DNA from: a phage | Strand: one strand, 5' to 3' | Sequence record: PZ452579.1 | DNA length: 64,000 bases | Shown: positions 14,469-59,949 of the stretch, piece by piece | Position numbering within the stretch: the first letter of the stretch is position 1 | Layout: every line of letters begins with the position of its first letter | Notes under the pieces: generated by a model | The model's input: the letters and a program-made list of their open reading frames with translations, nothing else | What the model was told of the DNA's origin: nothing | Databases searched by the model: none | Made by a program: the position numbers and the translations under genes

Positions 14469-14798
14469 TTATACTCTAGGCTTTTGAGCTTGTTTGGTAT
14501 TGGATTCCCATGCGGCTTTGGTAATTTTGTTAGCGGCATAACCAAAGGCATTAGATAGAACACCTTTAGAGTTGAATACATCCAATCCAATAAGTACACC
14601 GGCTGTGTTAAATTTAGGAGCAAAGTACGCATTAGTTTTAGAAAGAGCTTTTTTCAATTCAGGGTCTTGAACCAAGCCATCAAAAACGCCTTTACTATTT
14701 ACTTTATATGTTACTTTGGGATTTTTACCTTCTTCGATAGCAGCTTTCTGTTCCGCAGATAATGTAACTTCAGTGATAAACTCTTGATACGTTTTCAT
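14469..14798 (-). CDS. internal-protein-like capsid-targeted protein
   Basis: 109-aa ORF beginning MKTYQEFITE (capsid-targeting sequence, predicted prohead-protease cut after Glu10). Confidence 0.75.
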   Translation of the reverse strand: MKTYQEFITEVTLSAEQKAAIEEGKNPKVTYKVNSKGVFDGLVQDPELKKALSKTNAYFAPKFNTAGVLIGLDVFNSKGVLSNAFGYAANKITKAAWESNTKQAQKPRV

Positions 14799-14823
14799 TT
14801 TGTTCCTATTGTTTTAATTTATG

Positions 14824-15138
14824 TTATTCTTTAGGGAAGTTTTTAGAGTATGCGTCATAAAGTTTATTACCGATGCGACGGAAGACTTTAGCTGCAAAAC
14901 GGTTTTCAGGGTTTTTAATCATGATTTGCATCATGTAAGTTCCTGCATCCGAAAGAGCTTCTTCGTAGTACCCATTAATTTCTTTAAGAGTCCTACGTTT
15001 ACCACCAGGACCATCAACAGTAATTTTCCATTTACCTGTAGAAGTGCGGCTCGGTGGCTCAACTTGTTCAATCCAAATATAACCACCTTCAACGCGTTGG
15101 TTGGCGGATTCTGCAATAAATTCTTTATATGTTTTCAT
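14824..15138 (-). CDS. internal-protein-like capsid-targeted protein
   Basis: 104-aa ORF beginning MKTYKEFIAE; promoter element upstream (15156-15199). Confidence 0.75.
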   Translation of the reverse strand: MKTYKEFIAESANQRVEGGYIWIEQVEPPSRTSTGKWKITVDGPGGKRRTLKEINGYYEEALSDAGTYMMQIMIKNPENRFAAKVFRRIGNKLYDAYSKNFPKE

Positions 15139-15155
15139 TTTTTGTTTCCTTGTTT

Positions 15156-15199
15156 GTTTTGATAGAGTAATTATACCATATTAATACTTAAGCGTAAAC
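15156..15199 (-). promoter_or_regulatory. early-type promoter element upstream of an ip-like gene
   Basis: GTTTAC-N17-GTATAAT then TACTCTATCAA. Confidence 0.5.
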
Positions 15200-15202
15200 A
15201 AT

Positions 15203-15463
15203 TTAAGCTTTACCGCCAGAAATAATTCCGAAGTTGTTAAAATCGTATCCAATATCGTCAACATCTACTTTAGGACTTACTACAACATAAGCAATTTCAC
15301 TACGTTTTGCATAGGTGTTGATTTCTTTACCATCGCCACCTAAGAAAGAATACCCATTACGTTTTAATGAGCCAAAGTCTTCCGCATCACCAATGAAAGC
15401 TTTAACTTTAAATTTGGGGTCTTTGGCATCTGCTTCAGCTATAAATTCTTGATACATTTTCAT
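15203..15463 (-). CDS. internal-protein-like capsid-targeted protein
   Basis: 86-aa ORF beginning MKMYQEFIAE. Confidence 0.7.
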   Translation of the reverse strand: MKMYQEFIAEADAKDPKFKVKAFIGDAEDFGSLKRNGYSFLGGDGKEINTYAKRSEIAYVVVSPKVDVDDIGYDFNNFGIISGGKA

Positions 15464-15469
15464 TTTTCC

Positions 15470-15883
15470 TTAGTAAATTGATTTACCATAGTATTTGTAC
15501 CAAGTCGGACGTTGAGCAATTTTTTCATCTAAGCGTGCTTGACTTATCGCAATGGACGCTTCGGACGGGACGTAATTATTACGAAATTCTACAGGGATGT
15601 CGGAAATATCCTGGACAGTCGTGTCCTTGATTTTGAAACCACGTTTCAAACATTCGGCGATTAGCTCGATTTGTCGTAAACGTAAAAATTCAAGTTTGTC
15701 GTAAAAGAATGTTACGTGACCTGTGCCTAAGATAAATGTTGGAGAGATTTTAAAATCCTTTACACGTTTACCGTTTTGAACATGTTTACGGACTGCACCA
15801 AATACGCGTGGTAATTCACGATACTCAGCCATAAGATGTTGGTCGGTCAGTTCAGAAACAAGTGTTAAATTGATACGGGTCAT
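15470..15883 (-). CDS. denV: endonuclease V (pyrimidine-dimer DNA glycosylase)
   Basis: [31 protein letters not shown]... closely matches T4 DenV; ATG at 15883 with GGAGG RBS (track ORF begins at upstream TTG). Confidence 0.9.
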
Positions 15884-15910
15884 AATTTCCTCCAAGTAGT
15901 TGATGAATGT

Positions 15911-15940
15911 ATAGTATCAAAACCCTTGGAGGAAGTAAAC
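15911..15940 (-). promoter_or_regulatory. early-type promoter element upstream of denV
   Basis: GTTTAC-N18-TACTAT; GGAGG RBS then denV ATG. Confidence 0.5.
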
Positions 15941-15941
15941 A

Positions 15942-16238
15942 CTATTTTTCTGAAGCGCCTGAAATATATTTTTCAAGTCGTTGCTTCATTAGCGAGCCGT
16001 TCTTAGCGATTTCTTCCGGTTTATCGCACATACGTAACAAGGCTTCAAGCTTAGCGATATCGCTGGTACGTTCAAATTTGCGAGTATCTATCTTACTAGC
16101 AAGTTCAGAAATACGTGCTAATAGACTTTCGGCTTCAACCAAAGCTGCACCTAGCTTAGTTGCAAATGTGTCAGTAGCTTCGTTAAGAATAGATTCTGAT
16201 AAAAATTCACTATATGTTTTCATATATACGCTTTCCAA
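15942..16238 (-). CDS. internal-protein-like capsid-targeted protein (ipII/ipIII position)
   Basis: 98-aa ORF beginning [10 protein letters not shown]; immediately downstream of gene e. Confidence 0.7.
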
Positions 16239-24194: not shown

Positions 24195-24758
24195 TTATTT
24201 ACCTAGTTTAGTTATTATAGCTTCGGCAGCAGCTTTTAGCTTAGATGCAGTGTTAATACGATTTTTAATTTCAGTATACGCATCGCCAAGAACATCAAGG
24301 CTATCAGAATAAACACTTACACTATTGCGTTCGCTATTTGAAATAGAACCTTTAGTTTTACGATCAAAATCAGTGTACACGTCTTGAAGATCACGGGCTG
24401 CCTTCTTTGCATCATCCAATGCATCAAGAGCTTTATTCAAAGCATTGACATATTTTTTAGTGTCAAACATATTCTTAGAAATTTTAACAGGTGCACGTTC
24501 AGGAGTAGCTAAGGCGGATTTAGGAACCTGCGTGCCAGATGCCAGTTTCTTAGAAATTTTGAAAAACGCTTTATTGAAACTATTTTCTTGTCTCATCGTA
24601 AAAGAACTAGTATCGATGTTATACATTTCAATAGCTTTAGCTTTCCACTTAAGAAAATCGCCGCGGTCTTTTGGATCCAAGTGGAAGAATACTTTAGTAA
24701 GATCTGCTTCAGATGGTAATTTTGCTGCTTCGGTTAAAAATTCGGCATAGGTTTTCAT
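24195..24758 (-). CDS. internal-protein-like capsid-targeted protein (IPIII-sized)
   Basis: 187-aa ORF beginning MKTYAEFLTE; terminator hairpin downstream. Confidence 0.7.
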   Translation of the reverse strand: MKTYAEFLTEAAKLPSEADLTKVFFHLDPKDRGDFLKWKAKAIEMYNIDTSSFTMRQENSFNKAFFKISKKLASGTQVPKSALATPERAPVKISKNMFDTKKYVNALNKALDALDDAKKAARDLQDVYTDFDRKTKGSISNSERNSVSVYSDSLDVLGDAYTEIKNRINTASKLKAAAEAIITKLGK

Positions 24759-25550: not shown

Positions 25551-25627
<77 letters not shown>

Positions 25628-25633
25628 AATATA

Positions 25634-25707
25634 TGACCCAGACCAGATTCGAACTGGTAACCTTTCCCTTATGAGGGGACTGCTGCTAACCATTGAGCTA
25701 CAGGGCC
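25634..25707 (-). tRNA. tRNA with anticodon CAU (Ile2/Met type), no encoded CCA
   Basis: Hand-folded: acceptor GGCCCTG/CTGGGTC (one U-U mismatch), anticodon loop CUCAUAA, T-arm ACCAG-TTCGAAT-CTGGT; 6 nt upstream of tRNA-Arg. Confidence 0.65.
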
Positions 25708-26306: not shown

Positions 26307-26597
26307 TCACCGTACCATATTAATGTAATTATATTCAATGCAACGTAATTTCAAAGGATTCTTGAAAATATCATATTCAAGAGGGCCTTTTTCTGTTTCA
26401 ATAAAGAAATCAAAGTTAACTGTGTTAAATTTATCGTCTTCACAGAGTAATTTAACTTGCGAAGATGAACGGTCGATATAAACCTTTTCAACCTCAAAGT
26501 TAGTCAGAATACCATAGTCATTAACTAGTGCTTTAGCTGCACGTTGATCGCTTTCATATCCATTCTCGACAGATTTTACTTTAGCATAAAGAATCAT
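26307..26597 (-). CDS. hypothetical protein
   Basis: 96-aa ORF. Confidence 0.45.
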   Translation of the reverse strand: MILYAKVKSVENGYESDQRAAKALVNDYGILTNFEVEKVYIDRSSSQVKLLCEDDKFNTVNFDFFIETEKGPLEYDIFKNPLKLRCIEYNYINMVR

Positions 26598-26956
26598 GAA
26601 TGTTCCACCACTTCAAAGGTATGAGCATCAACAATATGATACCAGTCAAAATTTTCTTCTGCGTTTTTATAAATTTCGCGAAGAGCCTCAACAGTTTTTC
26701 CTGTAGCAACAAGGTCGTCAATACCACCAAGAGGATAACAGTCATAACCAGCAAACAGAAGGAAATTAATAGTTTCTGTAGGTTCTGGATGCAGAACTCC
26801 GTTATCGTCTACCACTTCAAAGAAAGTGTAAGAAGGAGTACAAGTTTTAATCCAAGCCCATGCTTGAGCCGCTGAATCAAATGGTCTGCGTATCAAACGA
26901 CAATCAGAGTCTTTAGAAGGATTTGCTTCAAAATCTGCATATACATGATATTTCAT
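26594..26956 (-). CDS. hypothetical protein
   Basis: 120-aa ORF; start/stop overlaps with neighbours. Confidence 0.45.
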   Translation of the reverse strand: MKYHVYADFEANPSKDSDCRLIRRPFDSAAQAWAWIKTCTPSYTFFEVVDDNGVLHPEPTETINFLLFAGYDCYPLGGIDDLVATGKTVEALREIYKNAEENFDWYHIVDAHTFEVVEHS

Positions 26957-27163
26957 TTACTCACCTTTTGCAATTTTATCCATAACAATAGCGATTAAAC
27001 CGATTAGAAATGCTACTACCAATGAGATAGAATTTTCTGTTGTTGTCAGTAGTCCACAAATGAATCCTACAAACATCGAAAAACTAAAAGCCATTGAAGC
27101 AATTACTACAGCAACATTACGAATCAGTTCAGCGCGTTTCATTTTATTTCTCCATTTACTCAT
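26957..27163 (-). CDS. small predicted membrane protein
   Basis: 68-aa ORF with two hydrophobic helices. Confidence 0.45.
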   Translation of the reverse strand: MSKWRNKMKRAELIRNVAVVIASMAFSFSMFVGFICGLLTTTENSISLVVAFLIGLIAIVMDKIAKGE

Positions 27164-27165
27164 TT

Positions 27166-27210
27166 GTTTTGATAGGACTACTATAACATATCCATATAGG
27201 CTTGTATACC
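27166..27210 (-). promoter_or_regulatory. early-type promoter element
   Basis: Conserved block TTGATAGGACTACTATAACATA with variant -35. Confidence 0.45.
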
Positions 27211-27211
27211 T

Positions 27212-27487
27212 TTATTTCAAATATATTGCGTATTTTTTATAGCCACCAGGCTCGTGTCGAAGACCTTTATCATTCGCAAAACGTTGAATGTTATTGAACT
27301 GATTTTCATCAAGTTCGGATGTGTCAAATATAAAAAAGTTTCGTTTGTTACCAAGCGTGATATGCGGAGTTAAGTCAATGTTATACAAATTAAGAATATC
27401 AGCAATAACCTGATTGACTGCTTTGTTAATTTTCACACCAGACGATTCTGAGATGAATTCGTTGAAAGTTTTCATTTTAGGTTCCAT
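27212..27487 (-). CDS. internal-protein-like capsid-targeted protein
   Basis: 91-aa ORF beginning MKTFNEFISE; promoter element upstream. Confidence 0.7.
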   Translation of the reverse strand: MEPKMKTFNEFISESSGVKINKAVNQVIADILNLYNIDLTPHITLGNKRNFFIFDTSELDENQFNNIQRFANDKGLRHEPGGYKKYAIYLK

Positions 27488-27496
27488 TTGGTTGTT

Positions 27497-27536
27497 TTGA
27501 TAGGACTACTATAACATAGTCCTACCATGATGTAAA
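27497..27536 (-). promoter_or_regulatory. early-type promoter with perfect spacer palindrome
   Basis: GTTTAC-N18-TATAGT; TAGGACTA...TAGTCCTA; near-identical to the 7826-7863 element. Confidence 0.55.
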
Positions 27537-27848
27537 CTATTTTATGCCTTTAGATGAAATAGTATTCTGGCGTTTGACCCCAGTTTGTGAAAAATCATGG
27601 TTATCAATTTGGTCAACTCGCATAACACCAAACGCAGATTTAATTTTGGCCTTTGAACCTTTTTTGATACTAATTACCATATAAGTATCATTTTTCTTAT
27701 ATTCGAAATTTGATACTTCAACGCCTTGATTAGAAATTGACTTAATAATAGCATTAGCGTATTCATCATCTAACGGGCCGTTAGTGTTAATAACAAAATT
27801 TTTATCCGCTTTAGTAGCTTCCGCGATGAATTCTTGATAGGTTTTCAT
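27537..27848 (-). CDS. ipI: internal protein I-like capsid-targeted protein
   Basis: 103-aa ORF beginning MKTYQEFIAE; adjacent to 57B as ipI in T4. Confidence 0.75.
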   Translation of the reverse strand: MKTYQEFIAEATKADKNFVINTNGPLDDEYANAIIKSISNQGVEVSNFEYKKNDTYMVISIKKGSKAKIKSAFGVMRVDQIDNHDFSQTGVKRQNTISSKGIK

Positions 27849-27870
27849 TTTATTTCCTTGAGGTTGTTTA

Positions 27871-27911
27871 TTTGATAGGATGATAGTAACACACCATCAT
27901 CCTTATGTAAA
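27871..27911 (-). promoter_or_regulatory. early-type promoter with spacer palindrome, upstream of ipI
   Basis: GTTTAC-N18-TACTAT; GGATGAT...ATCATCC. Confidence 0.5.
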
Positions 27912-27925
27912 CTGTTTTGTGAAAA

Positions 27926-28611
<686 letters not shown>

Positions 28612-28615
28612 TTTA

Positions 28616-29350
28616 TTACCTTAAGATTTTTTCAATTTTAGAATAAAGCTCTTCTAACGAGCCGTCGTTTGTAATAACTAAGTCGCCTTCTTCAATAGGC
28701 AACCCAGCTTCTGTAATATGTTTATCAGTGGATTCCGTACCAGAGCGAACCACATGAATAACTGTAGCACCCATCGCTCTAGCGGTTTCCATTTCATGGA
28801 CTTGGCGTGTATCGGTTACAACATAGTAATCAAAATCACTTCCAATATAATCCATATAGTTTAATGCAAAAAGTTTAACCCAATACATACGGTCAAATAA
28901 ATTAACGACAACATCCGTACCGAGGGCTTGCATAAGACGGCGGATTGACCATGTGTCGTTGATATTATTTATAGCTTCACGCAGGGCTTCATACGGTTTA
29001 ATATCTAGATATGAATACCTACCTTCTAATGATGATAATACTTTAACATTATTAATTGGTAAATATTGACTTTGTAAATAAATTAGCGCTTCTTCCAATA
29101 ATTCAATAACATCCAACTTATTGAGATTTAATGGTGTTTCACGGTCATATCCAACACCTTCAAAGTATTCATATTTCAACTCGGTGAATACATCAGGGTT
29201 TTCGGCATGTCTACGTCCCCAGGCTATTGCTAGAGCGTCTTTAATCGGATATGCCAATTGGTATTTTACGGATTTAAAGTTTGAATTGATGTAATCAGCA
29301 GTAGTGTCTTTACCACTACGTTTGATGCCGCTTAAAAAGATTAGCTCCAT
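28616..29350 (-). CDS. 1: deoxynucleoside monophosphate kinase (gene 1)
   Basis: MELIFLSGIKRSGKDTTADYI...; P-loop; closely resembles T4 gp1. Confidence 0.9.
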   Translation of the reverse strand: MELIFLSGIKRSGKDTTADYINSNFKSVKYQLAYPIKDALAIAWGRRHAENPDVFTELKYEYFEGVGYDRETPLNLNKLDVIELLEEALIYLQSQYLPINNVKVLSSLEGRYSYLDIKPYEALREAINNINDTWSIRRLMQALGTDVVVNLFDRMYWVKLFALNYMDYIGSDFDYYVVTDTRQVHEMETARAMGATVIHVVRSGTESTDKHITEAGLPIEEGDLVITNDGSLEELYSKIEKILR

Positions 29351-56451: not shown

Positions 56452-56876
56452 TGTATCTTATCCCTGAATCTTATGAATTGGTACTCGAAAATGTCGAAGC
56501 ACTTATTCCTGAAGCACAGGGCCGAATCGATGCATTGTCTTCTGCTCTCGATATTGACGATATAAATACTATTATCGAGAACATGCTTGAAACTGAAACG
56601 GATTTAGCTGTTGCAATGGCTTCCATTATTAATGAAGAACAGTTAAATGAGTTTATCGTTAAACATGTTTCTTCTCGTGGTGAAGTCACCCGCACTAAAG
56701 ACCGTAAAACTCGTGAACGTAACGCGTTCCAAACCACTGGTCTTTCTAAAGCAAAACGTAGACAAATCGCTCGTAAGGTCGTTAAAGCTAAAAAAGCTAA
56801 CCCTTCAGGCCAAGTTAAAGGCTTGCGTAAGCGTAAAAAGGCTCTTAAACGTCGTAAAGCATTAGGATTAAGCTAA
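56451..56876 (+). CDS. 68: prohead core protein gp68
   Basis: 141-aa ORF with basic C-terminus; T4 order. Confidence 0.9.
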
Positions 56877-57517
56877 TGAATAAACCCGAGTTACTTATTG
56901 AAACTTGGGGTCAACCCGGTGAGATTATTGATGGCGTTCCAATGTTGGAATCTCATGATGGAAAAGATTCTGGCTTAAAACCAGGGCTTTATATAGAAGG
57001 TATTTTTCTTCAGGCAGAGGTTGTTAACCGAAATAAACGTTTATATCCTAAACGCGTTTTGGAAAAAGCAGTAAGTGACTATATTAAAGAACAAGTCGCA
57101 ACCAAACAAGCCCTTGGAGAATTAAACCATCCACCTCGCGCAAATGTTGACCCTATGCAAGCCGCTATCATTATTGAAGATATGTGGTGGAAAGGAAACG
57201 ATGTATATGGGCGCGCTAGAATTATTGAAGGCGACCATGGTCCCGGCGATAAATTAGCTGCTAATATACGAGCTGGTTGGATTCCAGGTGTTTCCTCTCG
57301 TGGTCTTGGTTCTTTAACCGACACCAATAAAGGGTACCGTATCGTGAACGAAGGATTTAAATTAACCGTCGGCGTAGATGCCGTATGGGGACCTTCTGCT
57401 CCAGATGCTTGGGTTACTCCTAAACAAATATCAGAATCAGAAAATTCGGTGGAAATCACCAAAAACAGTGCTGACGAAGCATTTAAAGCTCTCGCAGAGA
57501 GTTTAAAAGCATTATAA
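56876..57517 (+). CDS. 21: prohead core protease gp21
   Basis: 213-aa [19 protein letters not shown]... Confidence 0.95.
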   Translation: MNKPELLIETWGQPGEIIDGVPMLESHDGKDSGLKPGLYIEGIFLQAEVVNRNKRLYPKRVLEKAVSDYIKEQVATKQALGELNHPPRANVDPMQAAIIIEDMWWKGNDVYGRARIIEGDHGPGDKLAANIRAGWIPGVSSRGLGSLTDTNKGYRIVNEGFKLTVGVDAVWGPSAPDAWVTPKQISESENSVEITKNSADEAFKALAESLKAL

Positions 57518-57550: not shown

Positions 57551-58363
57551 ATGATCAAAGAACAACTTTTGAAAGAAGCTCAGAATATCGAGACTTCAGT
57601 TGCTCTTAATAGTGTTTTCGAATCAGTAGAACTGTCTCCGGACGTTAAAGCTAATTTCAGCACTGTATTCGAAGCCACCGTTAAGCAGGAAGCAGTCAAA
57701 CTGGCTGAATCTCATATCAAAGCCATCGCCGAAAAAGCCGAAGAAGAAGTTGAAAAGGCTAAAGAAGATGCTGAAGAGAAAGCTGATAAAAAATTGGCTG
57801 AACAAGCTTCTAAATTCCTGGACCATCTTGCAAAAGAATGGCTCGCAGAAAACCAAATCGCAGTTGATAAAGGCATTAAAGCTGATTTGTTCGAATCCAT
57901 GCTTGGTGGTCTGAAAGAACTGTTTGTTGAACATAACGTTGTTGTTCCAGAAGAATCTGTAGATGTTGTAGCAGAAATGGAAGAAGAGCTGGCCGAACAT
58001 AAAGAAGAAACCGCTCGTTTGTTCGAAGAAGTTACCAAACGTGATGCATATATCAATTACGTTCAGCGTGAAACCGCTATTAATGAAAGCGTGAAAGACC
58101 TGACTGAATCTCAGAAAGAAAAAGTTATTGACCTGGTTGAAGGTATGGATTATTCTGACGCATTTGGTACTAAGTTAACTGCTATTGTAGAAATGGTTAA
58201 AGGTTCTACTAAAGAAGAAGCCGCTATTACCGAAAGTATAAATACAGTTGACAATGACGCTGCCGGTCTTAATTTTGTTGCCGAAGCAGTTGACACTACC
58301 ACAACTCAGGTAGAACAGAATTCTAATGTAAGTTTATATGCGAAAGTCGCATCTCGTTTCTAA
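57551..58363 (+). CDS. 22: prohead core scaffold protein gp22
   Basis: 270-aa acidic alpha-helical ORF MIKEQLLKEAQNIE... Confidence 0.95.
   Translation: MIKEQLLKEAQNIETSVALNSVFESVELSPDVKANFSTVFEATVKQEAVKLAESHIKAIAEKAEEEVEKAKEDAEEKADKKLAEQASKFLDHLAKEWLAENQIAVDKGIKADLFESMLGGLKELFVEHNVVVPEESVDVVAEMEEELAEHKEETARLFEEVTKRDAYINYVQRETAINESVKDLTESQKEKVIDLVEGMDYSDAFGTKLTAIVEMVKGSTKEEAAITESINTVDNDAAGLNFVAEAVDTTTTQVEQNSNVSLYAKVASRF
58237..58244 (+). promoter_or_regulatory. candidate late promoter inside gene 22
   Basis: TATAAATA 144 nt upstream of the gene 23 ATG, within the gene 22 coding region. Confidence 0.4.
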
Positions 58364-58380: not shown

Positions 58381-59949
58381 ATGACTACTATCAAAACTAA
58401 AGCTCAGCTCGTAGACAAATGGAAAGAACTGCTGGAAGGTGAAGGCCTGCCGGAAATCGCTAATAGCAAGCAGGCTATTATCGCTAAAATCTTCGAAAAC
58501 CAGGAAAAAGATTTCGAAGTATCCCCTGAATATAAAGACGAGAAAATCGCTCAGGCATTTGGTTCTTTCTTGACCGAAGCTGAAATTGGTGGTGACCACG
58601 GTTATAATGCTCAGAACATCGCAGCAGGTCAAACCTCTGGTGCAGTAACCCAAATTGGGCCGGCAGTTATGGGTATGGTTCGTCGTGCTATTCCTAATCT
58701 GATCGCTTTTGATATTTGTGGTGTTCAGCCTATGAACAGCCCTACCGGTCAGGTATTTGCTCTCCGTGCAGTATATGGTAAAGACCCTATCGCTGCTGGC
58801 GCTAAAGAAGCTTTCCATCCGATGTATGCTCCGGATGCAATGTTCTCTGGTCAGGGCGCTGCTAAGAAATTCCCAGCGCTGGCTGCTAGCACACAAACTA
58901 AAGTAGGTGATATTTATACTCACTTCTTCCAGGAAACTGGTACTGTATATCTGCAAGCTTCTGCTCAAGTAACAATTAGTTCAAGTGCTGATGATGCAGC
59001 TAAATTAGATGCAGAAATTATCAAACAAATGGAAGCTGGCGCACTGGTAGAAATCGCTGAAGGTATGGCTACTTCTATCGCTGAACTTCAGGAAGGCTTC
59101 AATGGTTCTACCGACAACCCGTGGAACGAAATGGGCTTCCGTATCGACAAACAAGTTATTGAAGCTAAATCTCGTCAGCTGAAAGCAGCTTACTCCATCG
59201 AATTGGCACAAGACCTCCGTGCAGTACACGGTATGGATGCTGATGCTGAACTGAGTGGTATTCTTGCTACTGAAATTATGCTGGAAATCAACCGTGAAGT
59301 TGTTGACTGGATTAACTACTCCGCTCAGGTTGGTAAATCCGGTATGACTAATATCGTTGGTTCTAAAGCTGGTGTATTTGACTTCCAGGACCCGATTGAT
59401 ATCCGTGGTGCTCGTTGGGCCGGTGAAAGCTTTAAAGCTCTGTTGTTCCAGATTGATAAAGAAGCAGTTGAAATTGCTCGTCAAACCGGTCGTGGTGAAG
59501 GTAACTTCATTATCGCTTCCCGTAACGTAGTTAACGTACTGGCTTCAGTTGATACTGGTATTTCTTACGCTGCACAGGGCCTGGCTTCTGGTTTTAATAC
59601 CGACACTACTAAGTCTGTATTTGCCGGTGTACTTGGTGGTAAATACCGCGTATACATCGACCAGTATGCTAAACAGGATTACTTCACCGTTGGTTACAAA
59701 GGCGCTAACGAAATGGATGCAGGTATTTACTATGCTCCTTACGTTGCACTTACCCCACTGCGTGGTTCCGATCCTAAGAACTTCCAGCCGGTAATGGGCT
59801 TTAAAACTCGTTATGGTATCGGTGTTAACCCGTTTGCTGAAAGTTCCCTGCAGGCTCCAGGTGCTCGCATCCAGTCCGGTATGCCGTCTATCCTGAACAG
59901 CCTTGGTAAGAACGCTTACTTTAGACGCGTCTACGTTAAAGGAATTTAA
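58381..59949 (+). CDS. 23: major capsid protein gp23
   Basis: 522-aa ORF; near-identical over long stretches to T4 gp23 as recalled. Confidence 0.98.
   Translation: MTTIKTKAQLVDKWKELLEGEGLPEIANSKQAIIAKIFENQEKDFEVSPEYKDEKIAQAFGSFLTEAEIGGDHGYNAQNIAAGQTSGAVTQIGPAVMGMVRRAIPNLIAFDICGVQPMNSPTGQVFALRAVYGKDPIAAGAKEAFHPMYAPDAMFSGQGAAKKFPALAASTQTKVGDIYTHFFQETGTVYLQASAQVTISSSADDAAKLDAEIIKQMEAGALVEIAEGMATSIAELQEGFNGSTDNPWNEMGFRIDKQVIEAKSRQLKAAYSIELAQDLRAVHGMDADAELSGILATEIMLEINREVVDWINYSAQVGKSGMTNIVGSKAGVFDFQDPIDIRGARWAGESFKALLFQIDKEAVEIARQTGRGEGNFIIASRNVVNVLASVDTGISYAAQGLASGFNTDTTKSVFAGVLGGKYRVYIDQYAKQDYFTVGYKGANEMDAGIYYAPYVALTPLRGSDPKNFQPVMGFKTRYGIGVNPFAESSLQAPGARIQSGMPSILNSLGKNAYFRRVYVKGI

Follow-up and report, generated by a model that had tools for sequence, protein, structure and literature searches.

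The window, i.e. the whole stretch of 64,000 nt that was analysed (record PZ452579.1), comes from a Mosigvirus, an RB69-like T-even phage. Two tandem internal-protein genes, termed here IP-A and IP-B, are flanked by 57B/Acb1 and a tRNA.4 homologue, a position that is one of two internal-protein (IP) loci (57B-tRNA.4 and e/denV). The genes of the locus are all on the minus strand and their order of transcription is gp1, 57A, 57B, IP-A, IP-B and the homologues of tRNA.4, tRNA.3 and tRNA.2. The genes of gp21, gp22 and gp23 are all present in the same window. The features are the following:

29350-28616, minus strand: gp1, dNMP kinase
28611-28381, minus strand: 57A
27926..28381, minus strand: 57B = Acb1, anti-CBASS phosphodiesterase family (Pfam PF23474, 6.5e-59), the conserved left-hand flank
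27883..27911, minus strand: promoter 1, T4-early / sigma-70 type, upstream of IP-A (TTTACA, 17-nt spacer, TACTAT, TG-extended -10)
27877..27903, minus strand: 12-bp hairpin over the spacer and -10 of promoter 1 (-18.3 kcal/mol, z = -3.9; core segment z = -4.5)
27537..27848, minus strand: IP-A, Ip7-type internal-protein gene, 103 aa (ORF and phrog_2667)
27508..27536, minus strand: promoter 2, upstream of IP-B (TTTACA, 17-nt spacer, TATAGT, TG-extended -10)
27498..27527, minus strand: 12-bp hairpin over the spacer and -10 of promoter 2 (-17.2 kcal/mol, z = -3.45; core segment z = -5.6)
27476..27487, minus strand: in-frame upstream ATG and three codons (MEPK), the source of a 91-aa ORF, seen in the alignment of ten cassette leaders
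27212..27475, minus strand: IP-B, Ip9-type internal-protein gene, 87 aa (ORF and phrog_7673)
27180..27208, minus strand: promoter 3, upstream of the tRNA.4 homologue (TATACA, 17-nt spacer, TATAGT, TG-extended -10)
26957..27142, minus strand: tRNA.4 homologue, a 61-aa predicted membrane protein (phrog_1692; annotations in RB69, T4 and RB33), the conserved right-hand flank
56876..57517, plus strand: gp21, prohead protease (Pfam Peptidase_S77, 2.9e-107)
57551-58363, after gp21: gp22, scaffold (T4_CASP, 2.4e-89)
58381-59949, after gp22: gp23, capsid (Pfam Gp23, 9.6e-121)

The 1.5 kb round the locus aligns along its whole length, at 96-98% identity, with at least 22 deposited Mosigvirus phages, and the near-identical carriers include ESh27, phiE142, SF and mogra. 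In those records (at least 22) the RefSeq label of IP-A and IP-B is 'internal head protein', and the mogra record names them 'internal head protein 7' and Ip9-like. A first, sequence-only reading of this DNA had described two tandem genes with a capsid-targeting sequence, and both ORFs were found, intact and on the minus strand, beginning with MKTYQEFIAE and MKTFNEFISE respectively. Its remark that T4 has a single gene at this place also holds, i.e. there is one ipI between 57B and trna.4 in T4. We note that the IP genes directly adjoin a known counter-defence gene, 57B/Acb1, which is still called 'RNA ligase' or 'hypothetical' in several GenBank records.

Judged by its matches, IP-A is a member of the Ip7 family. 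It matches phrog_2667 'internal head protein' (7.1e-39) over residues 1-103, is 64-72% identical to proteins named Ip7, 99% identical to RB69ORF156c and 100% identical to a protein of phage FL18. IP-B is, by the same kind of comparison, a member of the Ip9 family: it matches phrog_7673 (7e-49) over residues 1-87 and is 71% identical to RB15 Ip9 (Q38376) and 100% identical to its counterparts in phages TH58 and ECO111 5-P. The IP-B gene had initially been listed as an ORF of 91 aa at 27487-27212. The gene is real, but position 27487 is probably not its true start. The ATG at 27487 sits in a weakened Shine-Dalgarno sequence (TGGAA vs AGGAA in the other cassettes), and we place the start at 27475 because the Ip9 homologues as well as the GenBank annotations of mogra and KAW3E185 (87 aa) begin at MKT. 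The RB69 IpI is annotated with the same MEPK prefix. The Shine-Dalgarno sequence of IP-B is weak (GGA only).

Beyond their N termini the two proteins have nothing in common. Pairwise comparison of the two bodies by BLASTP gave an alignment limited to the first 21 residues. The AF2 models also differ from each other: IP-A has a ferredoxin-like beta-alpha-beta-beta-alpha-beta core (pLDDT 75.3), with a C-terminal tail (residues 85-103) that has pLDDT values below 50 and yet is conserved in sequence, whereas IP-B is predicted as alpha-beta-beta-alpha-beta-beta (pLDDT 85.5). Neither protein has similarity to T4 IPI beyond the tag, i.e. no homology to the body of IPI* was seen, and T4 IPI belongs to phrog_4363, a third family beside phrog_2667 and phrog_7673. 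The idea of an ipI accompanied by an added gene thus has to be given up, since neither gene is ipI; one is of the Ip7 type (phrog_2667), the other of the Ip9 type (phrog_7673). Searches with the predicted folds of the two proteins did not retrieve IPI*, the PDB sequence search gave nothing meaningful for either, Pfam and NCBIfam hold no family for them, and a word-indexed homology search returned close T4-like relatives only.

Each gene has its own promoter, as had been suggested; at the sequence level this is borne out by a consensus scan of 26500-28700, in which only three sites had a TG-extended -10, all of them on the minus strand. The stop codon of IP-A abuts the TTTACA hexamer of promoter 2 (27536-27531), and its G (27537) is the first base of the extended -35 motif GTTTACA. 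The block at promoter 3 is 81% identical to that at promoter 2 with its hairpin degraded, and it serves the cassette array as its downstream homology arm. Ten leaders were aligned, i.e. those of this window, T4 ipI and trna.4, RB33 Ip5, Ip9, Ip7 and tRNA.4, and one cassette of the second IP locus. The conserved block consists of GTTTAC, 17 nt, TG-n-TA-nn-AT, CTATCAAAA, AGGA and AATAAAATGAAA. In 7 of the 10 leaders (window, T4 and RB33; z between -3.6 and -5.8) a strong hairpin occupies the same position, though the stems differ in sequence. RNAalifold found no consensus structure for the ten leaders, since the alignment does not bring their stems into register; the hairpins appeared when single leaders were folded. 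There is no TATAAATA late promoter in 26900-28450 and no convincing MotA box before IP-A or IP-B. The lack of a late promoter in this region counts against the explanation preferred below, since the internal proteins needed at head assembly would have to come from earlier synthesis or from read-through transcription.

The tag of IP-A, MKTYQEFIAE (codons 1-10, 27848-27819), is an exact match to the capsid-targeting sequence, and that of IP-B, MKTFNEFISE (codons 1-10, 27475-27446), is identical to it at 7 of the 10 positions. A six-frame translation of the window has 6 occurrences of the motif M[KR][ST][YFW]x[ED][FLY][ILV]x[ED] vs 0.0 in 200 shuffles, and all six matches are starts of minus-strand ORFs of 87-187 aa. 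A seventh tag-bearing ORF (MKMYQEFIAE) was caught by a looser pattern only. The occurrence of the tag motif at ORF starts is beyond chance.

Both proteins have I-x-E at residues 8-10 (IAE in IP-A, ISE in IP-B). A predicted gp21 cut after Glu10 would leave mature proteins of 93 aa with pI 9.5 for IP-A (I-A-E|A) and of 77 aa with pI 9.0 for IP-B (I-S-E|S). The cleavage rule is supported by T4 IPI, whose I-T-E at residues 17-19 fits the reported mature form of 76 residues (PMC3012670). In T4 the tag docks in the prohead core and is removed by gp21, and the basic mature proteins are injected (PMC3012670, PMC9391042). Judged from T4 biology, the tags of IP-A and IP-B would dock both proteins in the scaffold core (gp22) of the prohead, gp21 would then remove the tag by cutting after Glu10, and the two basic products would stay in the head with the DNA and enter the host by injection. 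Products injected together with the DNA could act before any phage gene is expressed. IP-B also has L-D-E at residues 55-57 (window 27303-27311, minus strand), a possible second gp21 site; this L-D-E of the Mosigvirus Ip9 variant is L-D-Q in the Tequatrovirus Ip9.

Comparison of the locus among relatives, as the sequence-only reading had proposed, brought out exchanges of single units. By BLASTN, RB69 matches the window at 27449-28700 (98.3%) and 26500-27209 with 27210-27448 replaced, i.e. only codons 10-87 of IP-B are exchanged, for a T4-like IpI, which results in Ip7 + IPI. KAW3E185 matches at 26500-27542 and 27826-28700 with 27543-27825 replaced, so that here only the IP-A body is exchanged for a T4-like IPI, giving IPI + Ip9. 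Phage p000v lacks 27210-27469, which is exactly one promoter+gene unit, and has Ip7 only, the two flanking promoter blocks being collapsed to one copy. The breakpoints are at 27209/27449 (RB69), 27542/27826 (KAW3E185) and 27209/27470 (p000v), and the edges of the swaps within the locus fall in tag-coding codons and in the repeated promoter block. Since the junctions lie there, the block made up of the promoter, the Shine-Dalgarno sequence and the tag codons supplies the homology for recombination.

More distant relatives differ further. Between 57B and tRNA.4 the content of the locus is:

T4: ipI
RB33: Ip5-Ip9-Ip7
VR5: Ip8-Ip9

The Ip7 of VR5 sits in the other IP locus, between ip3 and denV. 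A scan of IMG/VR anchored on 57B gave 35 close loci, in which the downstream ORFs were read up to tRNA.4. These have 0-5 tag-bearing genes before tRNA.4, most often two, and Ip7 and Ip9 co-occur in either order. The 51 bodies fell into at least 15 unrelated families by single-linkage clustering. Two Mosigvirus-like contigs (L012 and L014), whose 57B is 97-98% identical to that of the window, have zero IP cassettes after 57B; in L012 tRNA.4 follows directly, while in L014 tRNA.3 follows directly and tRNA.4 is missing too.

The single gene of T4 is therefore not a reference state, given that the survey shows 0-5 cassettes with two as the commonest number. Of the earlier suggestion that the second gene is an added cassette, the cassette behaviour stands, but the frame of a resident gene plus an addition does not. 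IP-A and IP-B are non-orthologous occupants of the locus, neither of them resident and neither added. We consider it very probable that each is an independent internal-protein cassette and that the locus is the polymorphic IP1 locus (57B-tRNA.4) of a Mosigvirus. Each cassette consists of a T4-early-type promoter with an overlapping hairpin, a Shine-Dalgarno sequence, ten tag codons and an unrelated effector body.

This arrangement is already known. The cassette nature of the locus was described in 1994 (as conveyed by citing papers), shuffling through promoter and stem-loop elements was proposed in 2010, and the sequences themselves are in at least 22 genomes. The names Ip5-Ip10 come from Repoila, Tetart, Bouet & Krisch 1994 (EMBO J 13:4181), according to the papers that cite it, and the signal sequence is common to at least 10 IP ORFs of the locus (Repoila 1994, cited through PMC12373910). 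As far as the citing papers convey the IP1 locus of Repoila 1994, it is like ours in the 57B-tRNA.4 position, in the leader peptide and early-promoter block before each ORF, in the Ip7 and Ip9 families, and in ORFs that vary in number, order and identity; nothing essential differs, the order Ip7-then-Ip9 being the Mosigvirus version. With T4 IPI, the GmrSD inhibitor, the two genes share the locus, the type of N-terminal tag, an I/L-x-E site, the size and the promoter-hairpin block. They differ from it in having no body homology, and T4 IPI is cut after residue 19, not 10. RB69 and KAW3E185 each have an IPI-type gene in one of the two slots, and there is no such gene in this phage.

Elements that combine an early promoter with a stem-loop occur in the IP loci and were proposed to mediate shuffling (Arbiol et al. 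2010, PMC2839356). In the PeSL cassettes of that work a promoter and stem-loop are likewise repeated between small accessory genes, relatives likewise differ by one promoter+ORF unit, and the repeat supplies the homology for recombination. The locus analysed here behaves as an analogue of this system: there is an early promoter with a stem-loop at two of the promoters (degraded at the third), and the differences between relatives map to the repeated block. According to the same source the two kinds of elements are analogues and not homologues, those of the IP locus being built on T4 early promoters and having AT-rich stems without polyG/polyC tracts (PMC2839356). Moreover, the conserved block at our locus takes in the first 8-9 codons as well, i.e. 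the tag, and part of the recombination arm is therefore coding sequence, unlike that of PeSL. For RB49 and phi1, excised mini-circles and promoter/terminator activity were measured by inverse PCR and reporter fusions (PMC2839356). The Ip2 and Ip3 of T4, from the second IP locus, are also tag-bearing injected proteins, each inhibiting one GmrSD variant; no sequence relation of these to IP-A or IP-B was established.

As to function, T4 Ip1, Ip2 and Ip3 each block a different type IV enzyme of the GmrSD family, with no cross-protection, and these three are the only internal proteins with assigned targets (PMC12373910). So far, all T4 internal proteins that have been tested have proved to be specific inhibitors, each of a type IV restriction enzyme. 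In Mosigvirus DNA the cytosines are arabinosylated, and enzymes of the GmrSD family cut it (PMC6024577, PMC13390438). Our literature searches for the function or target of Ip7 and Ip9 and for Mosigvirus virion proteomics returned nothing relevant. Reasoning from T4, we see about an even chance that each of the two bodies would disarm a single, specific defence of the host's first line. The likeliest target would be a modification-dependent nuclease (type IV, GmrSD family) directed against the Mosigvirus DNA with its arabinosylated cytosines, and the set of cassettes would then tune the host range. The absence of the IPI-type cassette of RB69 predicts a difference in host range between near-identical Mosigvirus phages; such phages are used in phage-therapy collections. 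The genes, tags, promoters and cassette behaviour are otherwise textbook T-even biology, to which the locus as found adds little.

Alternatively, the internal proteins could be packaged mainly as basic counter-ions of the DNA or as packaging aids instead of being specific anti-defence effectors. The basic mature forms (pI 9.0 and 9.5) agree with this, as do the lysines of T4 internal proteins that contact DNA phosphates (PMC3012670). However, such a role leaves unexplained why there should be at least 15 unrelated folded bodies with a rapid turnover at the locus, or why Ip9 homologues without a tag should be found in the early-gene region of the siphophage Bas70, and all three T4 internal proteins of known function are specific inhibitors. 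We regard it as unlikely that a counter-ion role is the main one, and note that the two roles are not mutually exclusive.

The relatives of IP-B that have no tag deserve description. With IP-B as the query, tblastn also matched phages that are not T4-like, the alignments starting at residue 14-19, i.e. past the tag:

Bas70, a 43-kb siphophage (L005, 2507-2725): 72-aa gene in the early-gene region, 58% identical to IP-B
Seuratvirus KS_S4 (L006, 2492-2716): 74-aa gene
Kuttervirus pertopsoe (L007, 467-2734): residues 678-736, the C-terminal domain, of a 755-aa protein that adjoins structural genes

All three match phrog_7673 from profile position 16-20 onward only, and the label 'internal head protein' on the genes of Bas70 and KS_S4 is probably wrong, i.e. 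a mis-transferred annotation. The family is small, since an exhaustive phmmer search with the IP-B body gave nine representative clusters only, some without a tag and some with the variant tags MKFNEFLTE and MKSFKEYLTE. This distribution suggests that the tag is a module for delivery which was joined to an effector able to work by itself; it agrees with the finding that IPIII made in the host without its tag is active in the cytoplasm (PMC9391042). One may go further and propose that the body of Ip9, residues 15-87 or so, forms an effector domain that stands alone and is used with different means of delivery in several unrelated phage lineages, and that T-even phages capture early counter-defence genes behind a tag. 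We hold this to be possible but on the whole doubtful; no report of the tag-less Ip9 body as a separate effector was found in the literature. If it were true, the domain would neutralise a defence that the hosts of Bas70, Seuratvirus, Kuttervirus and T-even phages share. Seuratvirus and Kuttervirus carry hypermodified DNA, which makes a modification-dependent nuclease one candidate target of Ip9.

The same relatives raise the question whether the tag of IP-B, with its three differences from MKTYQEFIAE, no longer directs packaging, so that IP-B would be an early cytoplasmic protein. Homologues without a tag exist and are presumably functional, and an early-type promoter precedes IP-B. Nevertheless T4 IPI is packaged although its tag, MKTFKEFTST, diverges even further, the members of the Ip9 family have the motif and the I-x-E in invariant or conserved form, and distant members keep a tag in the variant forms named above. 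A lost tag is thus in our view very unlikely, and packaging of IP-B by means of its tag is the reading that we prefer.

We also asked how well the two genes are preserved. Homologues of IP-A are found in 283 phage records and those of IP-B in 182, so both families are widespread. The dN/dS of IP-A is 0.05-0.16 against the copies of p000v, mogra and RB33, and 0.56 against the diverged copy of VR5; that of IP-B is 0.05-0.07 over 87 codons against four homologues. These values indicate that both are under purifying selection and are functional genes. A decaying or untranslated remnant, which the weak Shine-Dalgarno sequence and ambiguous start of IP-B as well as truncated or fused copies elsewhere might bring to mind, is hard to reconcile with this dN/dS, with the 178 of 182 records in which the gene is intact at 80% coverage or more, with the confident AF2 fold, or with the 54 invariant columns and the mean column identity of 92% in the alignment of homologues. 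We consider such a remnant extremely improbable. The sequence-only reading had itself said that it would fall if the 91-aa ORF were untranslated or a fragment of ipI; its low dN/dS, its fold with pLDDT 85.5 and the absence of anything shared with ipI beyond the tag speak against both. As regards the copies elsewhere, the 'ip7 protein' of OLB35 (77 aa) is an in-frame fusion of a tag-less N-terminal part of Ip7 with a C-terminal part of Ip9, the latter identical to IP-B of this window, and the 54-aa protein of FL31 is a truncated Ip9. They point to ongoing deletion or decay within Ip7-Ip9 tandems.

An origin of IP-B by tandem duplication of IP-A or ipI, as a diverged paralogue or fragment, is suggested by the common ten N-terminal residues, the similar upstream block and the small size of the gene, yet it is scarcely credible and at the sequence level refuted by the lack of similarity past residue 21, the separate PHROG families (2667, 7673 and, for T4 IPI, 4363), the different predicted topologies, and the tag-less full-length homologues of the IP-B body in other phage families, from which it follows that this body has an independent origin.

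The second IP locus of the window (14469-16223, minus strand) has four tag-bearing ORFs around denV:

16720-16220, minus strand: e lysozyme
16223-15942, minus strand: internal protein, 93 aa
15895-15470, minus strand: denV
15463-15203, minus strand: internal protein, 86 aa, MKMYQEFIAE
15138-14824, minus strand: internal protein, 104 aa (phrog_3966)
14798-14469, minus strand: internal protein, 109 aa (phrog_3966)

The proteins of 104 and 109 aa are paralogues, both in phrog_3966. The 86-aa ORF may be a paralogue of IP-A, since it matches phrog_2667 as IP-A does, but BLASTP between the two aligns only the tag. Outside both classical IP loci, an ORF of 187 aa at 24195-24758 (minus strand), near tRNA-Arg/Met (25551-25707), has the tag-like start MKTYAEFLTE|AA and belongs to phrog_2280 ('unknown function'). 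In all records listed it is either called a 'hypothetical protein' or left without annotation. From its start, this ORF may be an unrecognised internal protein. Its product is 95-99.5% identical in 164 of 165 phage records, mostly of Tequatrovirus (e.g. RB14ncORF136c), an unusually high identity across genera.
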